Source: Nostoc punctiforme PCC 73102 (GTDB lineage Bacteria; Cyanobacteriota; Cyanobacteriia; Cyanobacteriales; Nostocaceae). Taken from it: a DNA stretch of 32,000 nucleotides. Position 1 is the first letter of the stretch, and each line of letters starts with the position of its first letter. The notes beneath the pieces are model-generated. The model ran no database searches and was not told the DNA's origin. It saw only the letters and a list, made by a program, of their open reading frames with translations. A program made the position numbers and the translations under genes. Positions 3,001 to 30,127 of this stretch are shown in pieces. The stretch lies in the NCBI RefSeq assembly GCF_000020025.1, contig NC_010628.1, positions 8,202,323 through 8,234,322 on the forward strand. Reading direction: 5' to 3'.

Positions 3001-3220
3001 AGCGATCGCACTTCCTCAGATTACAGTAACAGCGATCGCACTTTCTCAAATTACAGCAAAAGCGATCGCATTTTCTGAGATTACAGTAATAGCGATCGCA
3101 CTTTCTCAAATTACAGTAATAGCGATCGCATTTTCTGAGATTACAGTAATAGCGATCGCACTTCCTCAGATTACAATAACAGCGATCGCACTTTCTCAAA
3201 TTACAGCAAAAGCGATCGCT
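3001..3220. repeat. tandem repeat, 30 bp unit x 7 plus a partial copy; each unit starts with a HIP1 site
   Basis: The unit AGCGATCGCACTTTCTCAAATTACAGTAAT repeats head to tail at 3001, 3031, 3061, 3091, 3121, 3151 and 3181, with a partial copy at 3211. There are a few substitutions per copy (CTT/TTT, CAAA/GAGA). No unique spacers lie between units. Confidence 0.95.
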
Positions 3221-3308: not shown

Positions 3309-3476
3309 GCGTTTCATCAACAAACTCATGCGTTTCATCAACAAAGGCATGCGTTTCATCAACAAACTCATGCGTTTCATCAACAAACTCATGCGTTTCA
3401 TCAACAAAGGCATGCGTTTCATCAACAAAAGCATGAGTTTCATCAACAAAAGCATGAGTTTCATCAACAAAGGCAT
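3309..3476. repeat. tandem repeat, 21 bp unit x 8
   Basis: GCGTTTCATCAACAAACTCAT-type units repeat every 21 bp from 3309 to 3476. Variants are AAACTC/AAAGGC/AAAAGC and GCG/GAG. The two track ORFs here (3279-3476 and 3328-3549) are just translations of the repeat. Confidence 0.95.
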
Positions 3477-3663: not shown

Positions 3664-6600
3664 TCACCTGCGTGTGCCAATATCATCACATAAATGCTTA
3701 TCGTCCTTGCTCACATTGGGGTTATTTTGCAAATAATCGCGCACCCAAGTACAACCCTTAACCATTAAATCATCCAAATTGAGATTCCACAGTTTCACCG
3801 TCTTGTCAGAACTTGCAGAGGCAATGGTTTGACCGTCGGGGCTAAATGCCACGCCCCAAACCGAACTGCTATGACCAGTGAGAGTTTGTAAGAGTTGCCC
3901 GTTGCGATTCCACAGCTTCACCGTCTTGTCATCACTTGCAGAGGCAATGGTTTGACCGTCGGGGCTAAATGCCACGCCCCTAACCGAACTGCTATGACCA
4001 GTGAGAGTTTGTAAGAGTTGCCCGTTGCGATTCCACAGCTTCACCGTCTTGTCATCACTTGCAGAGGCAATGGTTTGACCGTCGGGGCTAAATGCCACGC
4101 CCCTAACCGAACTGCTATGACCAGTGAGAGTTTGTAAGAGTTGCCCGTTGCGATTCCACAGCTTCACCGTCTTGTCATCACTTGCAGAGGCAATGGTTTG
4201 ATCGTCGGGGCTAAATGCCACGCCCCAAACCGAACTGCTATGACCAGTGAGAGTTTGTAAGAGTTGCCCGTTGCGATTCCACAGCTTCACCGTCTTGTCA
4301 TCACTTGCAGAGGCAATGGTTTGACCGTCGGGGCTAAATGCCACGCCCCTAACCGAACTGCTATGACCAGTGAGAGTTTGTAAGAGTTGCCCGTTGCGAT
4401 TCCACAGCTTCACCGTCTTGTCATCACTTGCAGAGGCAATGGTTTGACCGTCGGGGCTAAATGCCACGCCCCAAACCGAACTGCTATGACCAGTGAGAGT
4501 TTGTAAGAGTTGCCCGTTGCGATTCCACAGCTTCACCGTCTTGTCATCACTTGCAGAGGCAATGGTTTGACCGTCGGGGCTAAATGCCACGCCCCAAACC
4601 GAACTGCTATGACCAGTGAGAGTTTGTAAGAGTTGCCCGTTGCGATTCCACAGCTTCACCGTCTTGTCATCACTTGCAGAGGCAATGGTTTGACCGTCGG
4701 GCCTAAATGCCACGCCATTAACCGAACTGCTATGACCAGTGAGAGTTTGTAAGAGTTGCCCGTTGCGATTCCACAGCTTCACCGTCTTGTCATCACTTGC
4801 AGAGGCAATGGTTTGACCGTCGGGGCTAAATGCCACGCCCCTAACCGAACTGCTATGACCAGTGAGAGTTTGTAAGAGTTGCCCGTTGCGATTCCACAGC
4901 TTCACCGTCTTGTCATCACTTGCAGAGGCAATGGTTTGACCGTCGGGGCTAAATGCCACGCCCCAAACCGAACTGCTATGACCAGTGAGAGTTTGTAAGA
5001 GTTGCCCGTTGCGATTCCACAGCTTCACCGTCTTGTCATCACTTGCAGAGGCAATGGTTTGACCGTCGGGGCTAAATGCCACGCCCCAAACCGAACTGCT
5101 ATGACCAGTGAGAGTTTGTAAGAGTTGCCCGTTGCGATTCCACAGCTTCACCGTCTTGTCATCACTTGCAGAGGCAATGGTTTGACCGTCGGGGCTAAAT
5201 GCCACGCCCCTAACCGAACTGCTATGACCAGTGAGAGTTTGTAAGAGTTGCCCGTTGCGATTCCACAGCTTCACCGTCTTGTCATCACTTGCAGAGGCAA
5301 TGGTTTGACCGTCGGGGCTAAATGCCACGCCCCAAACCGAACTGCTATGACCAGTGAGAGTTTGTAAGAGTTGCCCGTTGCGATTCCACAGCTTCACCGT
5401 CTTGTCATCACTTGCAGAGGCAATGGTTTGACCGTCGGGGCTAAATGCCACGCCCCTAACCGAACTGCTATGAGCTTCTAATCGGTTACGTTCTTTGACT
5501 CCATAAATTACTTGCTGGAGTGTGGCTACTGCCAAAACGCGGGTATTTGGTTCTACCTTTTTATTTGGTGTTTTGAGTCGTTTTCCTACCTTCAAACCTT
5601 CTATTAAAGCATCAAGTTCAAAATTTGATGCCATCAGGTTTTGTGATTTCAGGCTATTGGCAAGAATTTCGGCATTTATCCGGCGTTTATCTGCATCGGC
5701 TTTGGCGGCAATTGCTTGCTGTTCTTGTTTCTGGGCAATGTTTCGCTGTTTTTCAGCGTCTGCCTGTCTATCCTTTGCTAATTGTTCAGCCGCTTTTGTT
5801 TGCTTAAGGGCTTTTTCTAAGTCTATTCCTCGTTTTTCTGCTAATTCCTGTGCCGACTTGGCTTGTGCCTCACCTGTTTCAGCCCTTTGACGCTGCTTGT
5901 CTGCCTCCCGGTGTTGTTCCTCTGCTTTTTGCTGCTGGTTCTGAGCATTTTTTGTTTGACGGTCTGCTTCTTGCCGCTGTGTTTGTTCTCTTTTTAGGGC
6001 ATCTTGAGCAATTAAACGTTGCTCTTTTTCACTGTCACGGGCTTTTTGGGCAATCAGATTTTGCTTGTAAATATACCAAGCGACTCCCGTCGATAATGTC
6101 GAAAATACAATCATTACAATCACATAAGGCAGTGCAGGTTTAAGCTGTTCCCATCTATCCCGCAAGTTAAACGGCAAATGTTTATTAATCCACTTATAAT
6201 CAAAGACTTGCCGATAAACTTCATTCCGCACCCGCAAAACATTATTCTCCCGCCGCACCACCCCTGAAAGCTTTAAGTGAGATTTAGCTAAAGACTGTTC
6301 TTCATCCACAACCGCCCGCTTACCCCAGCGAATCTCGCGGTAAATAGTCAAAACCTCCGGGTCTGGTGAGCGTTTGGTGAGCATATCGCGGACAAACTGC
6401 AAGTTATTGTCTTGTTCGCTCATTGCGCCAAAAAATGTGCTGCTAACTATGCTGTCTATATCGGCAGAGGATAAGACTCGATCCCCCCTAACCCCCCTTA
6501 AGAAGGGGGGAACAATAGAACTGTTGCTAACGGGGGCTGTGGGAATCTCCAAATCTGGAAGTTCATTGCCCCCCTTTTTAAGGGGGGTTGGGGGGATCAA

Positions 6601-7353
6601 AACCAAGGCATCACAGAGACGCTGCGTTAAATAAGGATGTCCCCCCGTCCACTTCAACACCTGGCGTAATACCTGCTTAGACTCATCGCTGGGTAATCCC
6701 AATCCCTCAGCGAAGGGTAAGGCTTCCTCAAAGGTAAAATCAGTTAAATCCACACGCTGTCCAATATTAAACGGTGTGCGCTTGGCATCGCTGATTAAAT
6801 CGCCGGGAGTCGCTACCCCCATTAAAACAAAAGAAAGCCGCCCAAACTCAGGATTAGTCGCACGGGCAACATAGAGATAACGAATTGCGATAAAAAAATC
6901 ATCGGTAAAATCCAGGCTGAGGGTAGAGTCAATTTCATCCACAAAAATCACCACTTGCCCTTCAACCTCAGCCAGCAAAACCTTCTCAAAAAACTGTGTC
7001 AGCCGTTGCGATACTCCCAGATGCTCGTGTTCTTGCCACCAACTCACCACATCTGTATCAAACATAAGTTGGTCATCCAGTTTGACCAAAAAGCCAAAAT
7101 ACCACTGTTCGGCTGTGACACTTGCCCCCAATTCCTGAAGGTCAACAATTACTGAGCTAATCCCCTCTTCCCTTAATGTGTCTGCCGTGCGTACCATCAG
7201 GCTAGACTTACCCATTTGGCGCGGCGTTAGCACATAGGCGAATATTGCTGACCGACATAAACCAAGCAATTCCTCATCAGCTTGACGGGGAATGTAAATC
7301 CCACTGCCAGCCTGTACAGTCCCCCCCACGGTGTAAATGCTTGGATTACCCAC
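3664..7353 (-). CDS. STAND/AAA-like P-loop NTPase - TM helix - coiled coil - 14x WD40 repeat protein
   Basis: 1229 aa with a GTG start at 7351-7353. The N-terminus YTVGGTV...IPRQADEEL, Walker A TPRQMGKSSL, Walker B VVIFVDEIDS and GGHPYLTQRL match the cyanobacterial 'AAA-like domain' family (Pfam AAA_35 as I recall it). A hydrophobic segment ALPYVIVMIVFSTLSTGVAWYIY follows. Then come ~170 aa rich in Q/K/E/A, and 14 units of HSSSVxGVAFSPDGQTIASASDDKTVKLWNRNGQLLQTLTG. Confidence 0.92.
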   Translation of the reverse strand: MGNPSIYTVGGTVQAGSGIYIPRQADEELLGLCRSAIFAYVLTPRQMGKSSLMVRTADTLREEGISSVIVDLQELGASVTAEQWYFGFLVKLDDQLMFDTDVVSWWQEHEHLGVSQRLTQFFEKVLLAEVEGQVVIFVDEIDSTLSLDFTDDFFIAIRYLYVARATNPEFGRLSFVLMGVATPGDLISDAKRTPFNIGQRVDLTDFTFEEALPFAEGLGLPSDESKQVLRQVLKWTGGHPYLTQRLCDALVLIPPTPLKKGGNELPDLEIPTAPVSNSSIVPPFLRGVRGDRVLSSADIDSIVSSTFFGAMSEQDNNLQFVRDMLTKRSPDPEVLTIYREIRWGKRAVVDEEQSLAKSHLKLSGVVRRENNVLRVRNEVYRQVFDYKWINKHLPFNLRDRWEQLKPALPYVIVMIVFSTLSTGVAWYIYKQNLIAQKARDSEKEQRLIAQDALKREQTQRQEADRQTKNAQNQQQKAEEQHREADKQRQRAETGEAQAKSAQELAEKRGIDLEKALKQTKAAEQLAKDRQADAEKQRNIAQKQEQQAIAAKADADKRRINAEILANSLKSQNLMASNFELDALIEGLKVGKRLKTPNKKVEPNTRVLAVATLQQVIYGVKERNRLEAHSSSVRGVAFSPDGQTIASASDDKTVKLWNRNGQLLQTLTGHSSSVWGVAFSPDGQTIASASDDKTVKLWNRNGQLLQTLTGHSSSVRGVAFSPDGQTIASASDDKTVKLWNRNGQLLQTLTGHSSSVWGVAFSPDGQTIASASDDKTVKLWNRNGQLLQTLTGHSSSVWGVAFSPDGQTIASASDDKTVKLWNRNGQLLQTLTGHSSSVRGVAFSPDGQTIASASDDKTVKLWNRNGQLLQTLTGHSSSVNGVAFRPDGQTIASASDDKTVKLWNRNGQLLQTLTGHSSSVWGVAFSPDGQTIASASDDKTVKLWNRNGQLLQTLTGHSSSVWGVAFSPDGQTIASASDDKTVKLWNRNGQLLQTLTGHSSSVRGVAFSPDGQTIASASDDKTVKLWNRNGQLLQTLTGHSSSVWGVAFSPDDQTIASASDDKTVKLWNRNGQLLQTLTGHSSSVRGVAFSPDGQTIASASDDKTVKLWNRNGQLLQTLTGHSSSVRGVAFSPDGQTIASASDDKTVKLWNRNGQLLQTLTGHSSSVWGVAFSPDGQTIASASSDKTVKLWNLNLDDLMVKGCTWVRDYLQNNPNVSKDDKHLCDDIGTRR
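3783..5474 (-). repeat. intragenic tandem repeat, 123 bp unit x ~14 (WD40 blades), near-identical at the DNA level
   Basis: A 123 bp periodicity is visible by eye (for example GCTAAATGCCACGCCCC[A/T]AACCGAACTGCTATGACCAGTGAGAGTTTGTAAGAGTTGCCCGTTGCGATTCCACAGCTTCACCGTCTTGTCATCACTTGCAGAGGCAATGGTTTGACCGTCGGG). Most units differ by a single nucleotide. Confidence 0.95.
6480..6598. mobile_element. MITE-like palindromic element inserted in frame within the NTPase-WD40 gene
   Basis: GATCCCCCCTAACCCCCCTTAAGAAGGGGGG (6480-) is an almost perfect inverted repeat of CCCCCCTTTTTAAGGGGGGTTGGGGGGATC (-6598). The two arms flank a ~55 bp core. The element is translated as IPPTPLKKGGNELPDLEIPTAPVSNSSIVPPFLRGVRGD, between the conserved GGHPYLTQRLCDAL and SSADIDSIV segments. 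Confidence 0.75.
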
Positions 7354-8881
7354 GTAGATGCTCCCGGAAATAATCGGTATAAAGTTGACAACGAGGAAAC
7401 ACTACACGCCCTTCCCGGCGCACCAAACCCGCACCCCGCAACCGGAAAAAGATGCGCTCATCTTCACAGGTGTTCTGGTGAATTACTTGGAACATACCTT
7501 GAACCAACTCCTGTTTGTTATGCAGCCGGAAGAGGTGGTTACGCAAATGATTGCCAAAGGGGCCATCCTCTGCGATCGCATTGGCAAATAATTCGGTAGG
7601 ATAGAGGCGATCGCTAGCAACTGAGTAAAGTGCAAGGCGTACTAAGTAAGGATGTCCACCTAGCAACGCTATTAATTGCTTTTCTTCGCTGGCATTGAAG
7701 GGTGAACCATGACGGCGGTTTAAATCAGCAACCTGTGCTGCTGTAAAATCTTCTAAATCAATTACTAGCCCAACATTAAAGGGGGATTGGTTGAGATTAT
7801 CAATTAGCTGGTAGGGTTCGGTGGAAGTAACCAGCGCTAAATCCAGTTGCTTCCAGATGGGATTAGTGGCGCGGCTATTGTGCCAGCTTCGCAGCATTCC
7901 AAAGAAATCAGAGCGAAAATCAGTATCAAAGACCCTTTCAACTTCATCCATCGCTAAGACAATGGGGTTGCCAAACTCTTTGAGCAAATAGCGGCCGACG
8001 TAGCGAGTGCAACGCTGACTATTGCCCAAAGGCATATTCCAATACTCATCAACTTTATCTGTCATTTCCAGTTCATCAGTTAACCAAGTACAGAACTGGC
8101 GAAAGAAAAGGTCAGCATTAGTTAAGGCAGCTTTGTCAAACAATTGAAAATCCAGCAAAGCAACCCGCTTACCTGCATTCACAGCAGTATTAATTGTGCG
8201 GATTAACAGGGAACTTTTGCCCATTTGCCGGGGGCCTTTAATTGTAATTGTCACACCCTGCCGCTCAATAGTCTCTAAAGTAAGGGCATCAGATGAGCGT
8301 TCCACGTAAAAAGCGGATTGCGATTCCATTGTTCCTTCGGGCATTTCCAGGGAGACAGGCTGTGCTGAAGGAAAGGGACGGGGTAGGAGTGACGGCTGAC
8401 TCTTCTGGATTAAGTCTGCTTTTGATTTTTCTTCACTGATAGCTAATGCACCGCCATAGACAGCCTGCAACAACTCTGCAATTAGTCGCGGCGTATCTTC
8501 TGCATCTTTCCAGAATGCCCAGTTAATCCCATTTAAGTAAGCACTCAAGGGATACAGGAACGGTTCTTGATACGCCAGACGCACCGGGAGAATTATCGGT
8601 CGTCCTGACTGTGATTTTGCCAAGTGGTGTGCTGTCTCTATCTCTGCCACCACCATCTCGCTGCTAGTTGACAAAGCAGAAAGGAAAGTAATCAAAAAAT
8701 CAGCTTGGCGGATTTCTGCTTCAATACATTCAGCCCAGCGTGTGCCAACAGACATGGTTTGGTCGATGAAGACTTTGTGCTGCTGCGATAGTGCTTGGAA
8801 GACTTGGAGTGCTACTGGTTCATCGGGGCTAGCATTACGCTTGTAACTGATGAAGATGCGTTTAGCCTGTGAGTTTAACAT
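7346..8881 (-). CDS. TIR domain - STAND/AAA-like P-loop NTPase
   Basis: 511 aa. The N-terminus RIFISYKRN...VFIDQ...GTRW...ADFLITFLS...SSEMVVAEIE has a TIR_2-like pattern with the conserved Glu retained. Then come FYVERSSD, Walker A GPRQMGKSSL, Walker B VLAMDEVE and GGHPYLVRL, paralogous to the downstream gene's NTPase. The TAA stop at 7346-7348 overlaps the downstream GTG start by 8 nt. Confidence 0.88.
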   Translation of the reverse strand: MLNSQAKRIFISYKRNASPDEPVALQVFQALSQQHKVFIDQTMSVGTRWAECIEAEIRQADFLITFLSALSTSSEMVVAEIETAHHLAKSQSGRPIILPVRLAYQEPFLYPLSAYLNGINWAFWKDAEDTPRLIAELLQAVYGGALAISEEKSKADLIQKSQPSLLPRPFPSAQPVSLEMPEGTMESQSAFYVERSSDALTLETIERQGVTITIKGPRQMGKSSLLIRTINTAVNAGKRVALLDFQLFDKAALTNADLFFRQFCTWLTDELEMTDKVDEYWNMPLGNSQRCTRYVGRYLLKEFGNPIVLAMDEVERVFDTDFRSDFFGMLRSWHNSRATNPIWKQLDLALVTSTEPYQLIDNLNQSPFNVGLVIDLEDFTAAQVADLNRRHGSPFNASEEKQLIALLGGHPYLVRLALYSVASDRLYPTELFANAIAEDGPFGNHLRNHLFRLHNKQELVQGMFQVIHQNTCEDERIFFRLRGAGLVRREGRVVFPRCQLYTDYFREHLRG

Positions 8882-9111
8882 TACTATTAACCTTGTCTTC
8901 CTTCAGCTTTTTAAGTAGAAAAGCTTATCTAATTGCGTGTCAATTTTGTACAGAAGTTGGGTAATTCTGTGCTTTGTCATCCAAGGGCATTTTTTCCCTA
9001 TTTCGAGAATTAGCTGAACAAATTAGGATTTTATTCACAGCGCTATCAATTAGTTACACTCTACTACAGCGCAGTTGCAGGCAATTACCGACAGCACAAA
9101 AAAATTGCTTA

Positions 9112-9237
9112 CGGAGTTCAAAGGCTCATTAACGGAGTTCAAAGACTCGTTAACAGAGCTAAAAGACTCGTTAATGGAGCTAAAAGACTCGTTAACGGAG
9201 TTCAAAGACTCGTTAACGGAGTTCAAAAACTCGTTAG
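9112..9237. repeat. tandem repeat, 21 bp unit x 6
   Basis: CGGAGTTCAAAGACTCGTTAA-type units start at 9112, 9133, 9154, 9175, 9196 and 9217, with a few substitutions (GGAGTTC/AGAGCTA/GGAGCTA). Confidence 0.95.
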
Positions 9238-13746: not shown

Positions 13747-13760
13747 ATACTTTATATAAA

Positions 13761-13808
13761 TGTGACTTTACCCATAACTTTGCCGCTACTGGAACCATAA
13801 CTTTGCCG
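13761..13808. repeat. divergent Tn7-like end relic, with the same architecture as the functional distal end
   Basis: TGTGACTTTACCCATAACTTTGCCG-CTACTGGAA-CCATAACTTTGCCG has a TGT terminus plus two direct copies of CCATAACTTTGCCG, 23 bp apart. The layout mirrors the adjacent end TGTCACTTAAAGGATATTGTGGCCG...ATAAAGTGGCCG. The first 25 nt match in about 16 positions. Confidence 0.45.
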
Positions 13809-13815
13809 TCAACAA

Positions 13816-13866
13816 TGTCACTTAAAGGATATTGTGGCCGTTTTTAAAGCATAAAGTGGCCGCAGT
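13816..13866. repeat. transposon terminal inverted repeat, distal (tniQ-side) end
   Basis: The sequence is TGTCACTTAAAGGATATTGTGGCCGTTTTTAAAGCATAAAGTGGCCGCAGT. It holds two GTGGCCG-containing putative transposase-binding repeats about 22 bp apart. Confidence 0.85.
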
Positions 13867-13900
13867 AGTAAAACCTTAGAGAAAGGCGAATAAATAAGAT

Positions 13901-15487
13901 TTACTGTGAAAGATCCAGTCTTATCTGCCTTAAAACATCAATTACCTCAGCCTGCCACAGCAAAGAGGGATGAGGCATAAATTTTCTGAGATTTTTAGCA
14001 GTAGGGGTAATGCCTTGTGCATGAAGTACTGAAGCGAGTTGGCGTACTTCTCGACAGCCTTGCTCAATAGCTAGTTTATGGACGAATTTGCGGTAATCTT
14101 TATAGCGTAAAGAAATAGCATGGCACACAATAGGGCAATAGTGGTAGAAAGTAGCCAAACCAATACCAGTTCTCTTAGCTATTTTTCTTAGAGAAGGTGG
14201 TGGATACTCGTCGCTAAACAAAGCTAATTCAAGTATGTCTCTGATGTGTAAAAATCTTAGCTGCTGTTGATATTCACTATATCTAGTAGCCAAAGATGCT
14301 GATAAAGATTTTGAGCAAGCAGTTAAACTACTAGGAGTTTTGAATCCTAAACGAACAGCTAATTGAGTTAAAGAAGGAGGTGGTTCTTCTTCTTGAGCTA
14401 GTTGCATCGCCTGAATAACTCGTTCGCACTTAGGACTACTATTTGAAGTAACTAAAGCAGACTGTGATGATAATTTTTTCTGTTTAGGAGCAGGTAGAGA
14501 AACTAGCTGCTTAAGAGTAAGAGGTAGTATTTTAAGTTGAAGAAAATCGACAAGATTAGTTGATAAGGCGTAGCAGATTTTCAAAAGTTTATCTAAATTT
14601 GGGATGGCTACACCTGAATACCAATGTAGAATTTCATATCTCGATAACCCAAGCCAACGACCAAAAGCGGAAACATTACCTTGAGTATATTGATAGACGT
14701 AAGCTTCTAGGATTGTTTTAATAGTCTCTCTTGGAGGTGGACAAGGAAATTCAGGAGCTTGAGCAATTAAATCTCCTAAAGTCTTAACTATCCAAATCTC
14801 TTGCTGTAAATTGGGTATCTCCTCGAACAATCTCTTATCTGGCAAAGATACTTCATAGTTCATCCCCAACCAACCACCACATTTCAGACAAAATCCAGGT
14901 CGTGAGTTATGCCACAGGTGTAAAAATTCAAGGTCACAGTGAGGACATTTTGATTCTAAAAATCGATAATGGATGGGACAAATGTTAGCTGGTTTCAAAG
15001 CCCACAGCAGAGGTGAATAAATGACTTGTTGATTATTTAACCAGTCTTGATAGCAATAAGGACACCAAGCATGAGAATGCTTGAGCAATCCCAAAACTGG
15101 GAAGACTTTTGCCCAAGGTAGCATTGTCAAAAACTGTAAGTCAGTACGTTTTGTCAATATTTCTAGAGCAAAAACCAGTTGTTTAGCTCCAATTTGTGTT
15201 CCGTTTAAAGCTTTTACAGAAGCTTGTCCATACAAACTTACGATACTTTTAGAATTCAAGGGATTGGTAGTATGGTTATGCCCAACTATTGGTTTTATCT
15301 CTCTAGCCAATAAAGTTCCAGGCAATACGCTATGAGCTGCGGCTAGACGAGCAACATAGCTAGTCAGACTTTCAACATAACAAGTACCAAGTCCAATCGG
15401 TTCCAGATGAAACAACCGGCTAGGACTGGGAGTAAATTCTGGGTCTTTGAGCCACAATTCATCGTTAACCGCCATGTTAGTCATCAT
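13901..15487 (-). CDS. tniQ: TniQ-family target-selection protein, long TnsD-like form
   Basis: 528 aa. The N-terminus PSRLFHLEPIGLGTCYVESLTSYVARLAAAH is a typical TniQ domain. Cys clusters follow (CPYCYQDW...CPIH, CPHCD...CLKCG). The C-terminus has two HTH-like copies (PPPSLTQLAVRLG, PPPSLRKIAKRTG). It overlaps the tnsC stop by 11 nt. Confidence 0.85.
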   Translation of the reverse strand: MMTNMAVNDELWLKDPEFTPSPSRLFHLEPIGLGTCYVESLTSYVARLAAAHSVLPGTLLAREIKPIVGHNHTTNPLNSKSIVSLYGQASVKALNGTQIGAKQLVFALEILTKRTDLQFLTMLPWAKVFPVLGLLKHSHAWCPYCYQDWLNNQQVIYSPLLWALKPANICPIHYRFLESKCPHCDLEFLHLWHNSRPGFCLKCGGWLGMNYEVSLPDKRLFEEIPNLQQEIWIVKTLGDLIAQAPEFPCPPPRETIKTILEAYVYQYTQGNVSAFGRWLGLSRYEILHWYSGVAIPNLDKLLKICYALSTNLVDFLQLKILPLTLKQLVSLPAPKQKKLSSQSALVTSNSSPKCERVIQAMQLAQEEEPPPSLTQLAVRLGFKTPSSLTACSKSLSASLATRYSEYQQQLRFLHIRDILELALFSDEYPPPSLRKIAKRTGIGLATFYHYCPIVCHAISLRYKDYRKFVHKLAIEQGCREVRQLASVLHAQGITPTAKNLRKFMPHPSLLWQAEVIDVLRQIRLDLSQ

Positions 15488-16616
15488 CTGAATTTACCCC
15501 TACATCATCTCTTTTAGGTTTTCTTTGTCCAACACGACCTTTTTTGAGTAGGGAATTTTTGGCTGGCATTTTTATTCCATGTTCTGTTGAATATTGCCGC
15601 TCAAAAAAACTGGATTCTTCTTGAAAGCGTTTAAATCCCTGTTGTGCTTCTTCCTTAATTTTGTTGATACGAGATGCAGAAAAAGCACCTAATTTAAGAT
15701 GTTTGCTATTAAGAGTCCGAGCTTCTTCAGAATAGGCAACTCTCAAAGAACGAGTTAACCAATTCTTCAATAGCCCCACACAACCAACTGAGCCAGAAAA
15801 AAGATACTCATAGTGTTGTTCTAATTTTGGTTCTTGTACAAGCGGAATGTGGCGTTGAAAAGTTCTAATTACTCTAATAAATTCAGCAATATCTTCTGGG
15901 TTATCAGCTTGGTAAGGTAACAGGTGAATATCTTCGCTACGCCGCCCTATTTGCCCATTCAAGGTAGGACAGTTAAGCAGTTCATAAGTTCCAAATAAAA
16001 TATGTACTGTACCAGTAAGATTAGCAATAGACTTAATCCAGTTCATTTGCTGTAACATCTGGTGTCCGCCTGCCATCATAAATAAATGCTGTGCCTCGTC
16101 TACAGTAAAAGCTTTTACCTGACGATAACGAAATGCTTTTTCCATTGCTCGGCGTAATGCGGGCGAATCTTGGCGGTAAGCCCGATTTAGCAACCCCAAA
16201 TCCTTTACCTCACCGTGAGGAATTTCATAATCAATTTTGTATTCAATCAAAACTTCCTGAAGGGATTCTAGGGCGCGAGTGTAATAATCTTTATAGCTAA
16301 ACTTTCCTTGTTCTGTTGGAATAGCTTCAATACCAGCAACAGCAATTTGACCAGGATTTTGGCGTAATGAGGGGAGAAATTCGTAATTTAGCAGATTTTC
16401 CAGACGCAAGCGTAAGGTTGTTTTTCCTACACCAGTCACACCAAAAACTAAAAATACTAAAGTGTCAGCTGGCTCCAGAATATTAATTAATAAAGTATCT
16501 AAGGCTTGTTTGAGCCTTTGATGTGGAATAGTGATACTTTTGAAATAATCAGTTTTAATTTCGTTCGGCTGTAAGAGAAGTTCTTCTGGAAAAGAGTGCG
16601 ACTGAATTTTTACCAT
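15477..16616 (-). CDS. tnsC: TnsC/TniB-like AAA+ ATPase of a Tn7-like transposon
   Basis: 379 aa. Walker A is FGVTGVGKTT and Walker B is FTVDEAQHL. GAGGAG lies upstream of the ATG. The gene sits between the transposase and tniQ, as in Tn7-like operons. Confidence 0.85.
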   Translation of the reverse strand: MVKIQSHSFPEELLLQPNEIKTDYFKSITIPHQRLKQALDTLLINILEPADTLVFLVFGVTGVGKTTLRLRLENLLNYEFLPSLRQNPGQIAVAGIEAIPTEQGKFSYKDYYTRALESLQEVLIEYKIDYEIPHGEVKDLGLLNRAYRQDSPALRRAMEKAFRYRQVKAFTVDEAQHLFMMAGGHQMLQQMNWIKSIANLTGTVHILFGTYELLNCPTLNGQIGRRSEDIHLLPYQADNPEDIAEFIRVIRTFQRHIPLVQEPKLEQHYEYLFSGSVGCVGLLKNWLTRSLRVAYSEEARTLNSKHLKLGAFSASRINKIKEEAQQGFKRFQEESSFFERQYSTEHGIKMPAKNSLLKKGRVGQRKPKRDDVGVNSDDD

Positions 16617-16784
16617 AGCTCCTCTGTATTGTAAGCTTCTATTTTGGTTAAATCTATTAATTTTTTTGCTGATGATTTTGGCTTTTTAATGCTTTCTGAA
16701 CCTGCCAAAATATTTTTATCTACATCTTGAACATTAGCTGAATAATTGTGTTTACTTAATTTACTTTCAATAACTGAGCTTTTT

Positions 16785-19220
16785 TCAATTAAAAGCCCAA
16801 ATATCTTGTTGTGCTAAATCATGTAAGCGTTGTAATAACAAAGTTTCTTGGGCTTCAGTTCCTTCTAAATATGTAGCTTTTTCTTGGGCAGATAGAGTAA
16901 TTCTTTGAGCGTGTTTCTGCCTTTTTCGACGTAATTGTGTGCTGGCTATGTTCACTTCTTTTTCGGAACGATTTTGGAAGGATTTGTAATGTTCAGAAAT
17001 ACAGCGTATCCAACGTCCCTTAACGTAAGCATAAGCAGTCCCCATATCAAAAGGGTCGTAACGAATAGGTACATTAGTTCCTTCAATTTCTGGTCTTATG
17101 AACGAATCATCAATTGACCAATAGTAGAGATAATTAATTTTCACGCCTCTACTTGGTTGAACTTTTGCAGTTCCTTTAGGTGTAGAAGGTAAGGTAAAAA
17201 TCTTAAAATTATCATCATAAATAATCTGTTTCTGAGGGCGATAACCACTTGAATTTAGCCCTGACATAAAAGTTTGACGTGGGCTTTGTCCTAATGTTGG
17301 ATGTTCTCTGCAATCATAGAATTCGTAACAATATGAACAAAAGTTTTCGTAGAGTTGATCTAGTGTCCAAACAGCTTGATTTTTGGGATTATTTGATTTC
17401 GTGACTTGGCGGACATTCTTAGTAATTTGAGTGTTGCCTCTAAGATTATAAAAAAACTCTGTATTTGTAGTTCCAAAAATACGTTCAATAATTGAACCAA
17501 ATCTGGCTTTCGCAGCTGGTCGCTGCTTTTTGGTACATTCAAAAGCCGCTAACAAGGTCTCAAAGTATGTACTACTAAATTCTGTCCCACCGTCAACAAC
17601 TATTGTCTCTGGTAATTTCTCAAATCGCTGTACGCAGATTCTTAATACCATCATGCAACTACGGTAGCTTGGCTCGTCAAAAGTTAGGTAAACTGCGAGA
17701 ATACGTCGGCTGTAAGCATCGATTAACAGAGTTGCCCAAGGTCTACCAAGAAGATAACCTGTTCGGGAGCATACTAACTCAATATCCAGTTGCGTATGGT
17801 CAATGTGTGCTATCTCAAATGGACGGTCGCCATGACATGGTGTGGTTAATTTCAACTCCCAATACAATAAAGATTGTTGATAAGCTGCTCTGTTTCCCTT
17901 ACGTTTTTTTGTTTGCCTATAACCAGAACGATGTTGAATTCTAGAACAAAATGTAGCGTAGCTAGGCAGCTTATCTGTTAGACCTGCTTTCTCCCATTCT
18001 CTTGCTAGAATTCCATAAACAGCTAGTTTGCTTCTTTGTTGAAAAGTTTCATAATATTCTTCAATTATTTTGTCAATGAAATCTTGAGACGATTGAGAAA
18101 TTCTGGGTAAGCGATTGCCTCTAGCATTAGAGTTATTTAGCAGCCCAATATAACCACATTTGTACGCCTTTTGTGCTGCTATAAACTTAGCCTTCCATCT
18201 GCGAATAGTACGTTGTGGAACAGTTTCTTTATCTCTATAACTGTCATTAAGATAAGGTTCAATTACTTCATATCTTCGGTTAGCTTCTGCCAAGTCTTCA
18301 GGACTAGCTCTCAAAAAACGCTCCATTGCTTTTGGAGACATTTTTACTTGATTATGAGTTTTAGGTTCCAGTTGATTGGGTTTAACATCTAAAATATTCA
18401 GAATCGTTCCATTATTCGGTTGCGATTTTATCATTTGTACATAAGCTACCGCGATTTCTTGGTCACGGAAAAGCTGTACTTTTTCTGGCTCTGCTAAGGG
18501 TGCGGCACTCAAATTAATGTAAATTTTTTTTGTAGCTATTAAAGCATTTATGTCATCAGGATTGCTCTGTTGAGTATGAATCATTTCCCAATAACTTATG
18601 CCCGGATTTAAGCTAATTAACTTCACCAAATTTTCAGCTATTTCTGGGTCAATTTGGTAATCTTCAGTAGTATAGGCTTTGAGAAATAGTCGATTTCTGT
18701 ATTTAATCCAATCAATTTCTGTATCTAACCGAATTCGGTAATACAGTCCTAATTTTTCTGCATAAGCAACTGCTGGCAGGTTTAACCACTGCCCATCTTC
18801 TGAACGCATATAACGTTGTGATTGTTTAGCTGCTAATTTTTCTAATCTTGATTCTGGTTTCCACTCTTCAAAACCTGCACTCCGCTTCCGAATTACGAAA
18901 AAGTCTGGTATATGCGAAGCTTTGATTATTTCCCCACTGCTTGAGGGGAATTCTAGAGTAATTTGATATGCTTGGTCGTAGTATTCGAGTACATCTGCGT
19001 CTTCTTCGTACTCCTCTACACCTGGCAATTCAATTTTATGGGACTCAAATTGAATAGTTTTTCCCATTTTGCGACTGGCGTAGTCGCCCCGGACATTTAT
19101 ACCACTGCTTTTGACTCGCCGAATTGGTTCAGAGGCACGGATTTGGGAAATTAATTGCCTAGCCTCTTGTGGTAAATTTACGCCGCGACACCAATCATTA
19201 AACTCTTGGTCGCTCAACAT
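16785..19220 (-). CDS. tnsAB: fused TnsA-like endonuclease / TnsB-like DDE transposase
   Basis: The track ORF runs to a GTG at 19262, but the ATG at 19220 (MLSDQEFNDW) is the more likely start. The N-terminal ~130 aa carry a TnsA-type E/D/K pattern (FESHKIELPG ... HIPDFFV ... FEEWKPES). The rest is a Mu/TnsB-type DDE core (HIDHTQLDI, LLIDAYSRR, VVDGGTEFSS, SIIERIFGT). Confidence 0.85.
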   Translation of the reverse strand: MLSDQEFNDWCRGVNLPQEARQLISQIRASEPIRRVKSSGINVRGDYASRKMGKTIQFESHKIELPGVEEYEEDADVLEYYDQAYQITLEFPSSSGEIIKASHIPDFFVIRKRSAGFEEWKPESRLEKLAAKQSQRYMRSEDGQWLNLPAVAYAEKLGLYYRIRLDTEIDWIKYRNRLFLKAYTTEDYQIDPEIAENLVKLISLNPGISYWEMIHTQQSNPDDINALIATKKIYINLSAAPLAEPEKVQLFRDQEIAVAYVQMIKSQPNNGTILNILDVKPNQLEPKTHNQVKMSPKAMERFLRASPEDLAEANRRYEVIEPYLNDSYRDKETVPQRTIRRWKAKFIAAQKAYKCGYIGLLNNSNARGNRLPRISQSSQDFIDKIIEEYYETFQQRSKLAVYGILAREWEKAGLTDKLPSYATFCSRIQHRSGYRQTKKRKGNRAAYQQSLLYWELKLTTPCHGDRPFEIAHIDHTQLDIELVCSRTGYLLGRPWATLLIDAYSRRILAVYLTFDEPSYRSCMMVLRICVQRFEKLPETIVVDGGTEFSSTYFETLLAAFECTKKQRPAAKARFGSIIERIFGTTNTEFFYNLRGNTQITKNVRQVTKSNNPKNQAVWTLDQLYENFCSYCYEFYDCREHPTLGQSPRQTFMSGLNSSGYRPQKQIIYDDNFKIFTLPSTPKGTAKVQPSRGVKINYLYYWSIDDSFIRPEIEGTNVPIRYDPFDMGTAYAYVKGRWIRCISEHYKSFQNRSEKEVNIASTQLRRKRQKHAQRITLSAQEKATYLEGTEAQETLLLQRLHDLAQQDIWAFN

Positions 19221-19330
19221 ATTGGCCCCCAAGCTTTTAAAGCCGCAACAAGCTCTTACCACAAATCTAGGCTTTCGCCAGTTAAACAGTCTTTTATTGA
19301 TATAAATATTTATACTTACCAGTTCAGATG

Positions 19331-19381
19331 ACTGCGGCCACTTTATGGTTTAAAAACGGCCACAATATCCTTTAAGTGACA
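19331..19381. repeat. transposon terminal inverted repeat, tRNA-proximal (tnsAB-side) end
   Basis: ACTGCGGCCACTTTATGGTTTAAAAACGGCCACAATATCCTTTAAGTGACA is the reverse complement of the 13816-13866 end apart from one mismatch. Confidence 0.85.
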
Positions 19382-19412
19382 CAAAAAGCTTTTTGGCATT
19401 TTCAATTTTTAG

Positions 19413-19788
19413 TGGGGGTGGAGGGACTTGAACCCACACGACCTATTACGGTCAACGGATTTTCATCCTCCCGCAGTTTTCACTGCTACCTGATGGCAAT
19501 AGCCAAATCAGATTTTGAGAATTGGACTCTCCCTTTACCCTCGACTTTACGTTAGGGTAGCTCCCGTCGGGTCTCTGCACCTTCCCTCAATTTTGGGTTT
19601 TGGATTTTAGATTGAAAACTAATCCCAAATCTAAAATCGCAAATCTAAAATTTTCGGGCTTGGCTCAGGATTGCCATGTCTGTCACCAGATTTAGGTTTC
19701 CCTGAGTTTGAGAGCTTCCACTTGAGGGATTTCTCCTTCAAGGCTCAGTTATCTAAGTCCGTAGCGTCTACCATTCCGCCACACCCCC
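19413..19788 (-). tRNA. trnL: tRNA-Leu(UAA) gene interrupted by a group I intron (5' exon 19755-19788, 3' exon 19413-19463)
   Basis: On the minus strand, GGGGGTGTGGCGGAATGGTAGACGCTACGGACTT is followed by the intron and then AAAATCCGTTGACCGTAATAGGTCGTGTGGGTTCAAGTCCCTCCACCCCCA. The joined exons give the anticodon loop CUUAAAA (anticodon UAA), a long variable arm, a GGGGGUG/CACCCCC acceptor stem and a TTCAAGT T-loop. CCA is not encoded. The T-stem shows one U-U mismatch (GTGGG/CCCTC). Confidence 0.9.
19464..19754 (-). ncRNA. group I (IC3-type) self-splicing intron of tRNA-Leu(UAA)
   Basis: The intron lies between U34 and A35 of the anticodon. It contains the conserved blocks of the Anabaena-type intron: GAGCCTTGAAGGAGAAATCCCTCAAGTGGAAGCTCTCAAACTCAGGGAAACCTAAATCT, GGCAATCCTGAGCCAAGCC, GGAAGGTGCAGAGACCCGACGGGAGCTACCCTAACG, GAGGGTAAAGGGAGAGTCCAATTCTCAAA, and a terminal ...GGAGGATG (omega-G). 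Confidence 0.9.
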
Positions 19789-21076: not shown

Positions 21077-21092
21077 CGTTACGAATTACCAA

Positions 21093-21141
21093 CGACTAAT
21101 GACCAATGACCAATGACTAATGACTAATAACTAATGACTGC
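21093..21141. repeat. STRR heptamer array (TGACCAA/TGACTAA, STRR2-type) running into the trpA start codon
   Basis: The array reads CGACTAA TGACCAA TGACCAA TGACTAA TGACTAA TAACTAA TGACTGC. The trpA ATG at 21134 lies inside it. Confidence 0.9.
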
Positions 21142-30079: not shown

Positions 30080-30081
30080 AT

Positions 30082-30127
30082 AATTCGTAATTCGTAATTC
30101 GTAATTCGTAATTCGTAATTCGTAATT
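30082..30127. repeat. STRR-type heptamer array (AATTCGT x 6 plus a partial copy)
   Basis: AATTCGT repeats perfectly at 30082, 30089, 30096, 30103, 30110 and 30117, then AATT. The array lies between convergent genes. Confidence 0.95.

Follow-up and report, generated by a model that had tools for sequence, protein, structure and literature searches.

A cargo-less Tn7-like transposon of Nostoc punctiforme PCC 73102 that probably reached tRNA-Leu(UAA) by landing in an older transposon

In a survey of cyanobacterial Tn7-like elements, Hsieh and Peters defined a clade with a fused TnsA-TnsB transposase (TnsAB), most members of which adjoin tRNA genes that are recognized by a large TnsD (PMC9881144). 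The targets listed for this clade include a 'tRNA-Leu* with a group I intron'. For the CRISPR-associated transposon (CAST) McCAST, insertion downstream of tRNA-Leu was shown to depend on TnsD, and the cargo-less members Tn5469 and Tn5541 were noted (PMC9881144). The tRNA targets of the clade are placed beyond the left end of the element. In a CRISPR-array-targeting Tn7-like family, described in Mobile DNA in 2025, the motif that is recognized lies 40-50 bp outside the left end; the TnsDs of this family lack a C-terminal module that is found in tRNA-targeting TnsDs (PMC11837452). Here, we have analyzed a stretch of 32,000 nucleotides of Nostoc punctiforme PCC 73102 (contig NC_010628.1, positions 8,202,323 to 8,234,322, hereafter termed the window, with positions counted from its first letter), which contains a Tn7-like element next to a gene for tRNA-Leu(UAA). 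The element is one copy of a 5565-bp cargo-less multi-copy transposon of this strain and belongs to the clade with fused TnsA-TnsB. Its position beside tRNA-Leu is probably the result of landing in an older transposon that occupied this site, and not of homing.

The element extends over 5566 bp from 13816 to 19381, with TGT and ACA at its termini, 51-nt inverted repeats and three genes. In a repeat search, its inverted arms were found to comprise 51 nt each and to be 98% complementary, and either arm contains two direct 19-nt repeats at a spacing of 22 nt, with none located deeper inside. The tniQ-side arm at 13816-13866, which constitutes the left end (LE) in the convention of the clade, starts with the terminal TGT and carries its 19-nt repeats at 13822-13840 and 13844-13862, and the tnsAB-side arm at 19331-19381, the right end (RE), carries its two direct repeats together with the terminal ACA. 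The 19-nt repeats are presumed to be binding sites of TnsAB. In short-read assemblies of PCC 73102 or near-identical strains, contigs into which repeated copies have collapsed terminate precisely at the TGT/ACA termini, with one of them (L007) comprising 5566 bp, which confirms the boundaries independently and demonstrates that the unit is repeated. The extent, termini and ~51-bp repeats proposed in a first-pass annotation were thus correct.

Three open reading frames (ORFs) on the minus strand occupy the whole interval. The tniQ/tnsD gene (13901-15487) encodes a protein of 528 aa that matches the Pfam family TniQ with 58.6 bits and contains an N-terminal zinc-finger region and a helix-turn-helix; tnsC (15477-16616) encodes an AAA+ regulator of 379 aa with matches to AAA_22 and TniB; and the tnsAB fusion (16785-19220) encodes 811 aa if started from ATG, or 825 aa as an ORF started from GTG. 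The non-coding margins of ~85 nt on the tniQ side and ~160 nt on the tnsAB side, the latter measured from the ATG, leave no space for cargo. No Cas effector gene is found among the three ORFs, and no CRISPR array in the window or adjoining the element. The G+C content of the element amounts to 38.0%, compared to 42.3% across the window.

The fused nature of the transposase is manifested in its matches to Tn7_TnsA-like_N (28.1 bits, cut-off 26.5, aa 88-177 of the 825-aa ORF) and Mu-transpos_C (28.7 bits, cut-off 21.7), with a further match to rve of 28.9 bits that stays under the cut-off of 32.6; a search of NCBIfam profiles gave no useful match. Upstream of the DDE core of TnsB, the protein contains the residues E59, D106 and E119-x-K121 (811-aa numbering) of a TnsA-type PD-(D/E)xK site. 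The N-terminal 260 residues align to chain M of PDB 9bw1 with E=1.6e-66 and a matching PD...ExK motif, and nearly the full length aligns to this chain of 898 aa with E=2e-270. Chain M was deposited as 'Integrase', and from its length we take it to be PmcTnsAB, the transposase of a Peltigera cyanobiont CAST. With the catalytic residues of the TnsA nuclease in place, TnsAB is predicted to be a nuclease, and D106 is the residue number whose mutation turned McCAST to cointegrate formation (PMC9881144). The TniQ aligns to the protein deposited as TnsD in PDB 8v32/9bw1 (E=1.1e-79) over aa 9-321 and 412-512, and its C-terminal module is duplicated, with an internal repeat of 32% identity (E=2e-7). 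From these features it is predicted to be a TnsD of the large class (528 aa, in a class of >450 aa) with a zinc-finger N-terminus plus a DNA-binding module at the C-terminus. The Pfam matches and the alignments to 9bw1 and 8v32 therefore agree with a TnsA-TnsB fusion accompanied by TnsC and a TnsD-type TniQ, as had been annotated, and the E/D/K residues quoted there align with the PD...ExK motif of chain M.

PCC 73102 holds at least six copies of the element. In an exact-protein look-up, the identical TniQ and the identical TnsC were each found under at least four accessions of this strain, which implies several element copies. In other copies (four accessions) TnsAB has a length of 869 aa, and 811 aa are found only in the protein of the window copy (ACC84878). 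A ~100% identical 869-aa TnsAB is also encoded on a 354,564-bp N. punctiforme record, presumably plasmid pNPUN01, which has this size. The shorter form contains one added C (minus strand) at 16795, which is missing from all five collapsed contigs compared and which causes a +1 frameshift with a stop at 16785. Up to residue ~808 the window protein is identical to the 869-aa form at 808 of 810 positions and it then diverges and terminates, and the displaced 3' part of the gene (16610-16795, minus strand) can be read in the adjacent frame to an end in ...IEAYNTEELW. This tail, with the motif ...IE(A/P)Y(N/K)xEELW, is kept throughout the family (...IEAYNTEELW, ...IEAYKDEELW, ...IEPYKNEELWK), and it is present in the 869-aa consensus and lost from the window copy. 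In PmcTnsAB, the last seven residues form a hook that binds the TnsC heptamer (PMC11915506), and by analogy the conserved tail is presumed to be a TnsC-binding hook. Since the frameshift removes it, the window copy is probably not autonomous, which renders its annotation as an autonomous unit doubtful. As both ends, tnsC and tniQ are retained, this copy could be mobilized in trans by intact copies that encode the 869-aa protein. Judged by the order of accessions, two more copies (ACC84855-84857 and ACC84858-84860) are arranged head to head on the left side of the window copy, at a distance of ~15 genes, and adjacent inverted copies of this kind are the expected product of intramolecular replicative transposition.

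The neighboring tRNA gene was missed by ARAGORN, which reports no tRNA anywhere in the window, because it is split by a group I intron of 291 nt. This intron is detected as a match to Rfam RF00028 on the minus strand (19501-19764, 78.1 bits, E=1.9e-18). In-silico splicing of the 5' exon (19755-19788, 34 nt) to the 3' exon (19413-19463, 51 nt), both on the minus strand and read as 19788-19755 and 19463-19413, yields an 85-nt tRNA-Leu(taa), with the intron (19464-19754, minus strand) located between U34 and A35 of the anticodon. From the element end at 19381 to the 3' end of the tRNA at 19413 the gap is exactly 31 nt, so that the annotated distance to tRNA-Leu(UAA) holds. Within the intron, we find an insertion of ~37 nt beyond the Rfam model, a hairpin of short AATC(C/G)CAAATCTAA repeats, with the repeats covering 19589-19652. 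It resembles the region of variable heptanucleotide repeats in Nostoc trnL introns that serves for strain typing.

To place the insertion in context, we compared the locus in ten Nostoc genomes (L017-L026) that were identified in a neighbor-gene look-up with ndhL. In nine of the ten, the same genes are found on both sides and the element is absent: on the left genes for TIR-AAA_35, DUF6658, LPG-synthase-like and Sll1247-like proteins, and on the right tRNA-Leu, ndhL, DUF3007 and trpA. The possibility that the left-hand genes (TIR-AAA_35, WD40 and others) are cargo of a larger element was rejected, since they are kept as chromosomal neighbors in these nine element-free genomes. The comparison thus revealed nothing that belongs to the element outside its boundaries, in line with the annotated absence of cargo. 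It also provided the empty sites at tRNA-Leu(UAA) whose comparison the first-pass annotation had envisaged. In three genomes (L021, L023, L026), the sequence reads ...CTTTATATAAAAGCTTTTTGGCATTTTCAATTTTTAG and is directly followed by the tRNA. Six further genomes (L018, L019, L020, L022, L024, L025) carry a different element at this site, here termed U, which ends in ...GCGGCAAAGTTATGGGTAAAGTCACA at 30-31 nt from tRNA-Leu. In these genomes, U consists of the tRNA-proximal end and a gene of the Uma2/DUF820 family only (8124-9223 in L018), and ~65 bp of the native far-side flank are missing, so the copies are one-sided and rearranged. The remaining genome (L017) contains a remnant of ~150-200 bp from a diverged relative of the element, with its tnsAB-side end 29 nt from tRNA-Leu.

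In the window, the element is preceded by a foreign stub of 55 bp (13761-13815, plus strand) that contains TGTGAC and two CCATAACTTTGCCG sites in direct orientation and whose terminus faces outward, away from the element. The first 26 nt of the stub match the tRNA-proximal U terminus (L018, L022, L024) in inverted orientation with 100% identity, which identifies the block as the other end of a U-type element. The element starts directly after this stub, at the inner edge of its two repeats, and fills the place of the U interior and the tRNA-proximal U end. We also considered that the 55-bp block might be part of the element's own end, which was ruled out since the collapsed contigs stop at the TGT/ACA termini and since it is homologous to U in genomes that lack the element. 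On the outer side of the stub, the comparison with the empty sites places the left 5-bp target duplication of U, ATAAA, at 13756-13760 (native site ...TATATAAAAGC...). On the opposite side, CAAAA at 19382-19386 constitutes five extra nucleotides with respect to the empty site in the position of the right duplication copy of U; it differs from ATAAA in the two nucleotides beside the terminus, and the native AGCTTTTTGG... comes next. A 5-bp target-site duplication of the element itself is absent: the five nucleotides to its left read AACAA and those to its right CAAAA. A search for duplications offset by a few nucleotides from the termini found none.

The orientation of the window copy sets it apart from a tRNA-homing relative. 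In this relative (L047-L050), cargo, tnsAB, tnsC, tnsD and tniQ are followed by the end of the element, with repeats in both orientations, by 31 nt and by the 3' end of tRNA-Ala. It is thus the tniQ-proximal end that faces the tRNA, whereas in the window it is the tnsAB-proximal end. The spacing amounts to 31 nt in the window, to 31 nt at tRNA-Ala in L047 and L049 and to 30-31 nt for U. Together with the placement of tRNA targets described for the clade, this geometry implies that the window copy is inverted relative to the clade rule with the 31-nt register kept. The annotation had assumed a tnsA-proximal end next to the attachment gene, as in Tn7, a rule that cannot be transferred to this clade in light of the tniQ side facing the tRNA in L047-L050.

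We next turn to other members of the family, whose surroundings bear on how the element selects its target. Relatives with TniQ identities down to 47% are all cargo-less three-gene elements in unrelated contexts, one of them on a plasmid-like contig of Nostoc sp. DedQUE05. A TniQ search of genome contigs yielded five short loci, none of them from PCC 73102, a search of metagenomes with a 24-nt end one locus, and the sole match in PLSDB is a truncated copy on a plasmid of Nostoc sp. C057. No tRNA is located beside the family copies in the scanned loci L037-L039, L041-L044 and L051-L054, and the flanks next to the ends of L001, L002, L004 and L006 were inspected by eye only. Neighbors of tRNA-Leu are restricted to the window copy and the L017 remnant.

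Instead, the ends of other transposons recur in these flanks. An outward-facing terminus motif of the Tn7 type is found 29-55 nt out in nine of 13 LE flanks and in two of ten RE flanks, compared to a background of 0.6% in random 70-nt stretches of the same loci. On the LE side, the foreign termini read ...GCAAAGTTATGGGTAAAGTCACA in the window (55 nt), ...GCTTATGGTGTAAGTCACA in L037 (53 nt) and ...ATTATCGTTCAAATCACA in L001 (52 nt), and they are located at distances of 53 nt in L006, 51 in L044, 52 in L046, 32 in L039 and 29 in L041. On the RE side, foreign stubs are found in L042 and L051, and in the FACHB-252 copy one is located 53 nt from the RE. Distances fall into two clusters, 51-55 and 29-33 nt, and a repeat is never cut. 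The sequences of the stubs differ among loci and the element copies are 97-100% identical, which indicates independent events. In L041, the element is located between the two halves of a host mini-element of ~105-106 bp.

Several of these loci display further nested arrangements. Gene-less miniature derivatives of 191-192 bp, which retain both ends, reside between the two halves of a ~105-bp host mini-element in L037 (5421-5612) and L046 (1368-1558), and the composite in L046 is flanked by the perfect duplication GTCTG. L037 also contains, at 5778-6117, an unrelated miniature Tn7-like element of ~340 bp (TGTCGGTTCGC...GCGAACCGACA, with several 'TAGTCTGCGA'-type repeats per end), which is inserted in the end of the family copy with a clean 5-bp duplication TTAAG and thus represents nesting in reverse. 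In L002 (Nostoc sp. TH1S01), the flanks 1-108 and 5674-5818 are inverted repeats of each other over at least 80 bp and contain GCGATCGC, and the element appears centered in a longer palindromic repeat. The idea that the foreign termini mimic the T-arm of a tRNA (GGGTAAAGTC vs GGGTTCAAGTC) was suggestive, but with its inconsistent orientation it was not used.

The location of the tniQ-side end 29-55 nt inside a foreign terminus in nine of 13 family insertions suggests that the family targets the ends of other transposons. Considered as a whole, the explanation that we favor on balance is that of a defective copy of an end-targeting family that entered U. In this scenario, the site 31 nt downstream of tRNA-Leu(UAA) would be the attachment site of U as another element of the TnsAB type, the present element would have entered U ~55 bp inside its distal terminus, at the typical landing position of the family, and the rest of U would then have been lost up to its tRNA-proximal terminus. 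Such a loss might have proceeded by intramolecular transposition deleting the intervening DNA or by transposition of a hybrid unit that reached from the U stub to the far end of the element. Either route would account for the missing duplication, for the 'wrong' end toward the tRNA and for the exact 31-nt register. In Tn7-like islands, internal or proximal insertions followed by deletion leave unmatched duplications, as described for Tn6022 (PMC11014353).

With respect to target choice, a selector might recognize the terminal repeat or the terminus of other Tn7-like elements and direct insertion to a fixed distance inside, in parallel to TnsDs of the clade that act at a set distance from tRNA ends or CRISPR repeats. 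In light of the homology to the solved TnsD and the duplicated C-terminal module, predicted to bind DNA, TnsD would be the most plausible selector. By this route, the element would end up in a safe site and travel as a passenger on elements that home by themselves. More tentatively, and as a proposal that we would not yet endorse, this subfamily might have evolved a third class of targets in the clade, after tRNA genes and CRISPR repeats, namely the terminal repeats of other Tn7-like transposons. In that case, a foreign terminus of the form ...CAAnTTATGnTnnAAGTCACA would be read by TnsD, and insertion would take place ~30 or 52-55 nt inside it. If true, the element would be a hyperparasite carried along by elements that have homing and plasmid-targeting pathways of their own, and the universal absence of duplications would point to replicative or intramolecular steps. 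Replicative steps would fit the cointegrate formation cited for PmcCAST (PMC9881144), and the closest solved homologue of the element's transposase is chain M of 9bw1.

Several observations weigh against this history. None of the ten family insertions with both flanks known (the window and nine others) shows a 5-bp duplication. A simple targeted insertion should leave one, so that either extra steps have to be assumed every time or the mechanism is partly not understood. The nominal P-value of ~1e-17 for the enrichment of the terminus motif is only indicative, since the motif was chosen after viewing the data, and the sample of flanks is small, with ~14 loci in which the chromosome of PCC 73102 is represented by the window copy. 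The remnant in L017 hints that the family can use the tRNA-Leu site directly. The two nucleotides CA beside the tnsAB-side end (CAAAA in place of the native ATAAA) are not accounted for by either proposed history. Tn7 TnsA cuts 3 nt into the donor flank, and by analogy CA might possibly be donor-flank nucleotides that were occasionally fixed during gap repair. Finally, the frameshift at 16795 might be a mistake in the genome sequence as deposited.

Among the alternatives, the one that survives best is the interpretation of the first-pass annotation, in which the element's own TnsD recognized the 3' region of tRNA-Leu(UAA), with near-symmetric ends allowing either orientation. We consider it unlikely. 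The spacing of 31 nt is identical to that of tRNA-homing relatives, but the orientation is opposite to the clade rule, a discrepancy that would be eased if control over orientation were weak, as the 98% symmetry of the 51-nt ends and the RE-side stubs in L042 and L051 may indicate. The TniQ is a close homologue of the TnsD in PDB 8v32/9bw1, for which binding to a tRNA target is described, and it keeps, twice, the C-terminal module typical of tRNA-targeting TnsDs (PMC11837452). Yet the genome contains at least six copies, and no tRNA was found in the related loci scanned; in the other, shorter contigs the flanks next to the ends were judged by eye only. In the diverged L017 remnant, it is likewise the tnsAB-side end that adjoins tRNA-Leu, at 29 nt, but in the window there is no duplication, with CAAAA present where the native ATAAA would be expected, and the position of the far end, abutting the U stub at the inner edge of its repeats, is left unexplained. 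TnsD-mediated homing to tRNA-Leu(UAA) is thus weakened by the multi-copy nature of the element and the readable flanks of other copies, which are not beside a tRNA, as well as by the absent target-site duplication and the prior occupation of the site by U.

A second alternative, which we regard as improbable, assumes that a hybrid unit from the U stub terminus at 13761 to the element's tnsAB-side terminus at 19381 was transferred in one piece to the tRNA-Leu site, by homing machinery of the U type acting in trans and with the element's end serving as tRNA-proximal end. It would explain why the left junction is exactly of the U type, with native flank, ATAAA and U terminus, why the right junction keeps the canonical register of 31 nt and why exactly five extra nucleotides are present compared to the empty site, although these read CAAAA instead of ATAAA. 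In its favor are also the relatedness of the two termini (TGTGACTTTACCC and TGTCACTTAAAGG) and the L046 composite, which demonstrates that nested units of this kind transpose with a clean duplication. Against it, the transposase would have to accept a heterologous end, and no autonomous element of the U type was identified. Least probable is an untargeted insertion in the manner of an insertion sequence, as proposed for Tn5469, with neighbors reflecting survival in dispensable DNA, since the family, albeit multi-copy, cargo-less and equipped with a single TniQ like the apparently untargeted Tn5469, and expected to be tolerated within other mobile elements as a 'safe haven', shows tight distances to foreign termini at 51-55 and 29-33 nt with repeats never cut, a motif frequency of nine in 13 against a background of 0.6%, and an end located at the canonical attachment position to the nucleotide.

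Elsewhere in the window, the TIR-AAA_35 protein of 511 aa and a protein of 1229 aa are encoded at 3664-8881 (minus strand), the former overlapping the start of the latter, which has fourteen WD40 repeats encoded by a 123-nt tandem array of 13.8 copies with 98% identity. The pair is kept in eight related Nostoc genomes and resembles a defense-type pair of the STAND/TIR kind. Intergenic tandem arrays at 3001-3219, 3309-3476, 9111-9236, 21084-21139 and 30081-30127, with periods of 30, 21, 21, 7 and 7 nt, resemble the short tandem repeats common in Nostoc genomes, and the first of them contains GCGATCGC.

Much of what is described here is already published, including the fusion of TnsA and TnsB, the attachment site at an intron-containing tRNA-Leu, minimal cargo-less relatives and defective copies mobilized in trans. 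The annotated view of the element as a chassis and of its TnsAB fusion is likewise found in the literature (PMC9881144, PMC11837452, Tn5469). On its own, the window copy carries little weight, as a well-delimited but defective example added to an already surveyed clade. It does caution against applying the Tn7 rule of a 'tnsA end next to the attachment gene', which is reversed in the fused-TnsAB clade, and at the tRNA-Leu(UAA) locus of Nostoc a single attachment site can be seen in natural states that are empty, occupied and re-occupied. Insertion that recurs just inside the ends of other Tn7-like elements was not found described in the literature searched and, if confirmed, may represent a new variant of TnsD targeting. 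Targeting of ends, if true, would extend the flexibility of TnsD selectors to Tn7-like elements parasitizing each other, and it would be cheap to test with three proteins and a target of ~55 bp.

In comparison with described systems, the tRNA-homing PmcCAST (type I-B2) and McCAST (type I-D; PMC9881144) have TnsC, the PD...ExK motif, the C-terminal tail of TnsAB in its family form, TGT/ACA ends with repeats of ~20 nt and the 31-nt distance to the tRNA in common with the element. Unlike these systems, the element is multi-copy and contains neither CRISPR-Cas genes nor a second TniQ nor cargo; its ends are a symmetric inverted repeat whereas theirs are asymmetric, it lacks a flanking duplication, its tnsAB-side end faces the tRNA and its TniQ has a duplicated C-terminal module. 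Tn5469 of Fremyella diplosiphon, as cited in later papers, belongs to the TnsAB clade, has three genes, among them one tniQ, carries no cargo and occurs at more than one type of site (PMC9881144, PMC11406308). Its name does not occur in our list of homologues. Kahn and Schaefer reportedly described it in 1995 as an element of 4.9 kb with 25-bp inverted repeats, a third ORF of 272 aa and a 5-bp duplication. By description only, it is thus distinguished from the element with its 5.57 kb, 51-nt repeats and TnsD-like TniQ of 528 aa. The 'res hunters' of the Tn5053 family resemble the element's family in relying on a single TniQ-dependent pathway directed at a feature of other mobile elements; they differ in that this feature is the resolvase-bound res site of Tn3-family elements on plasmids, and in lacking TnsA and using a resolvase, and the parallel is one of concept only. 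The array-targeting family (PMC11837452) is equally cyanobacterial and cargo-less with only fused tnsAB, tnsC and tnsD, is found in several identical copies per genome, includes defective copies that were probably moved in trans, and has its target motif at a fixed distance beyond the left end, as is seen in the element's family. In contrast to the array-targeting family, the TniQ of the element keeps the C-terminal module, and its recurrent neighbor is not a CRISPR repeat but the terminus of a foreign transposon.

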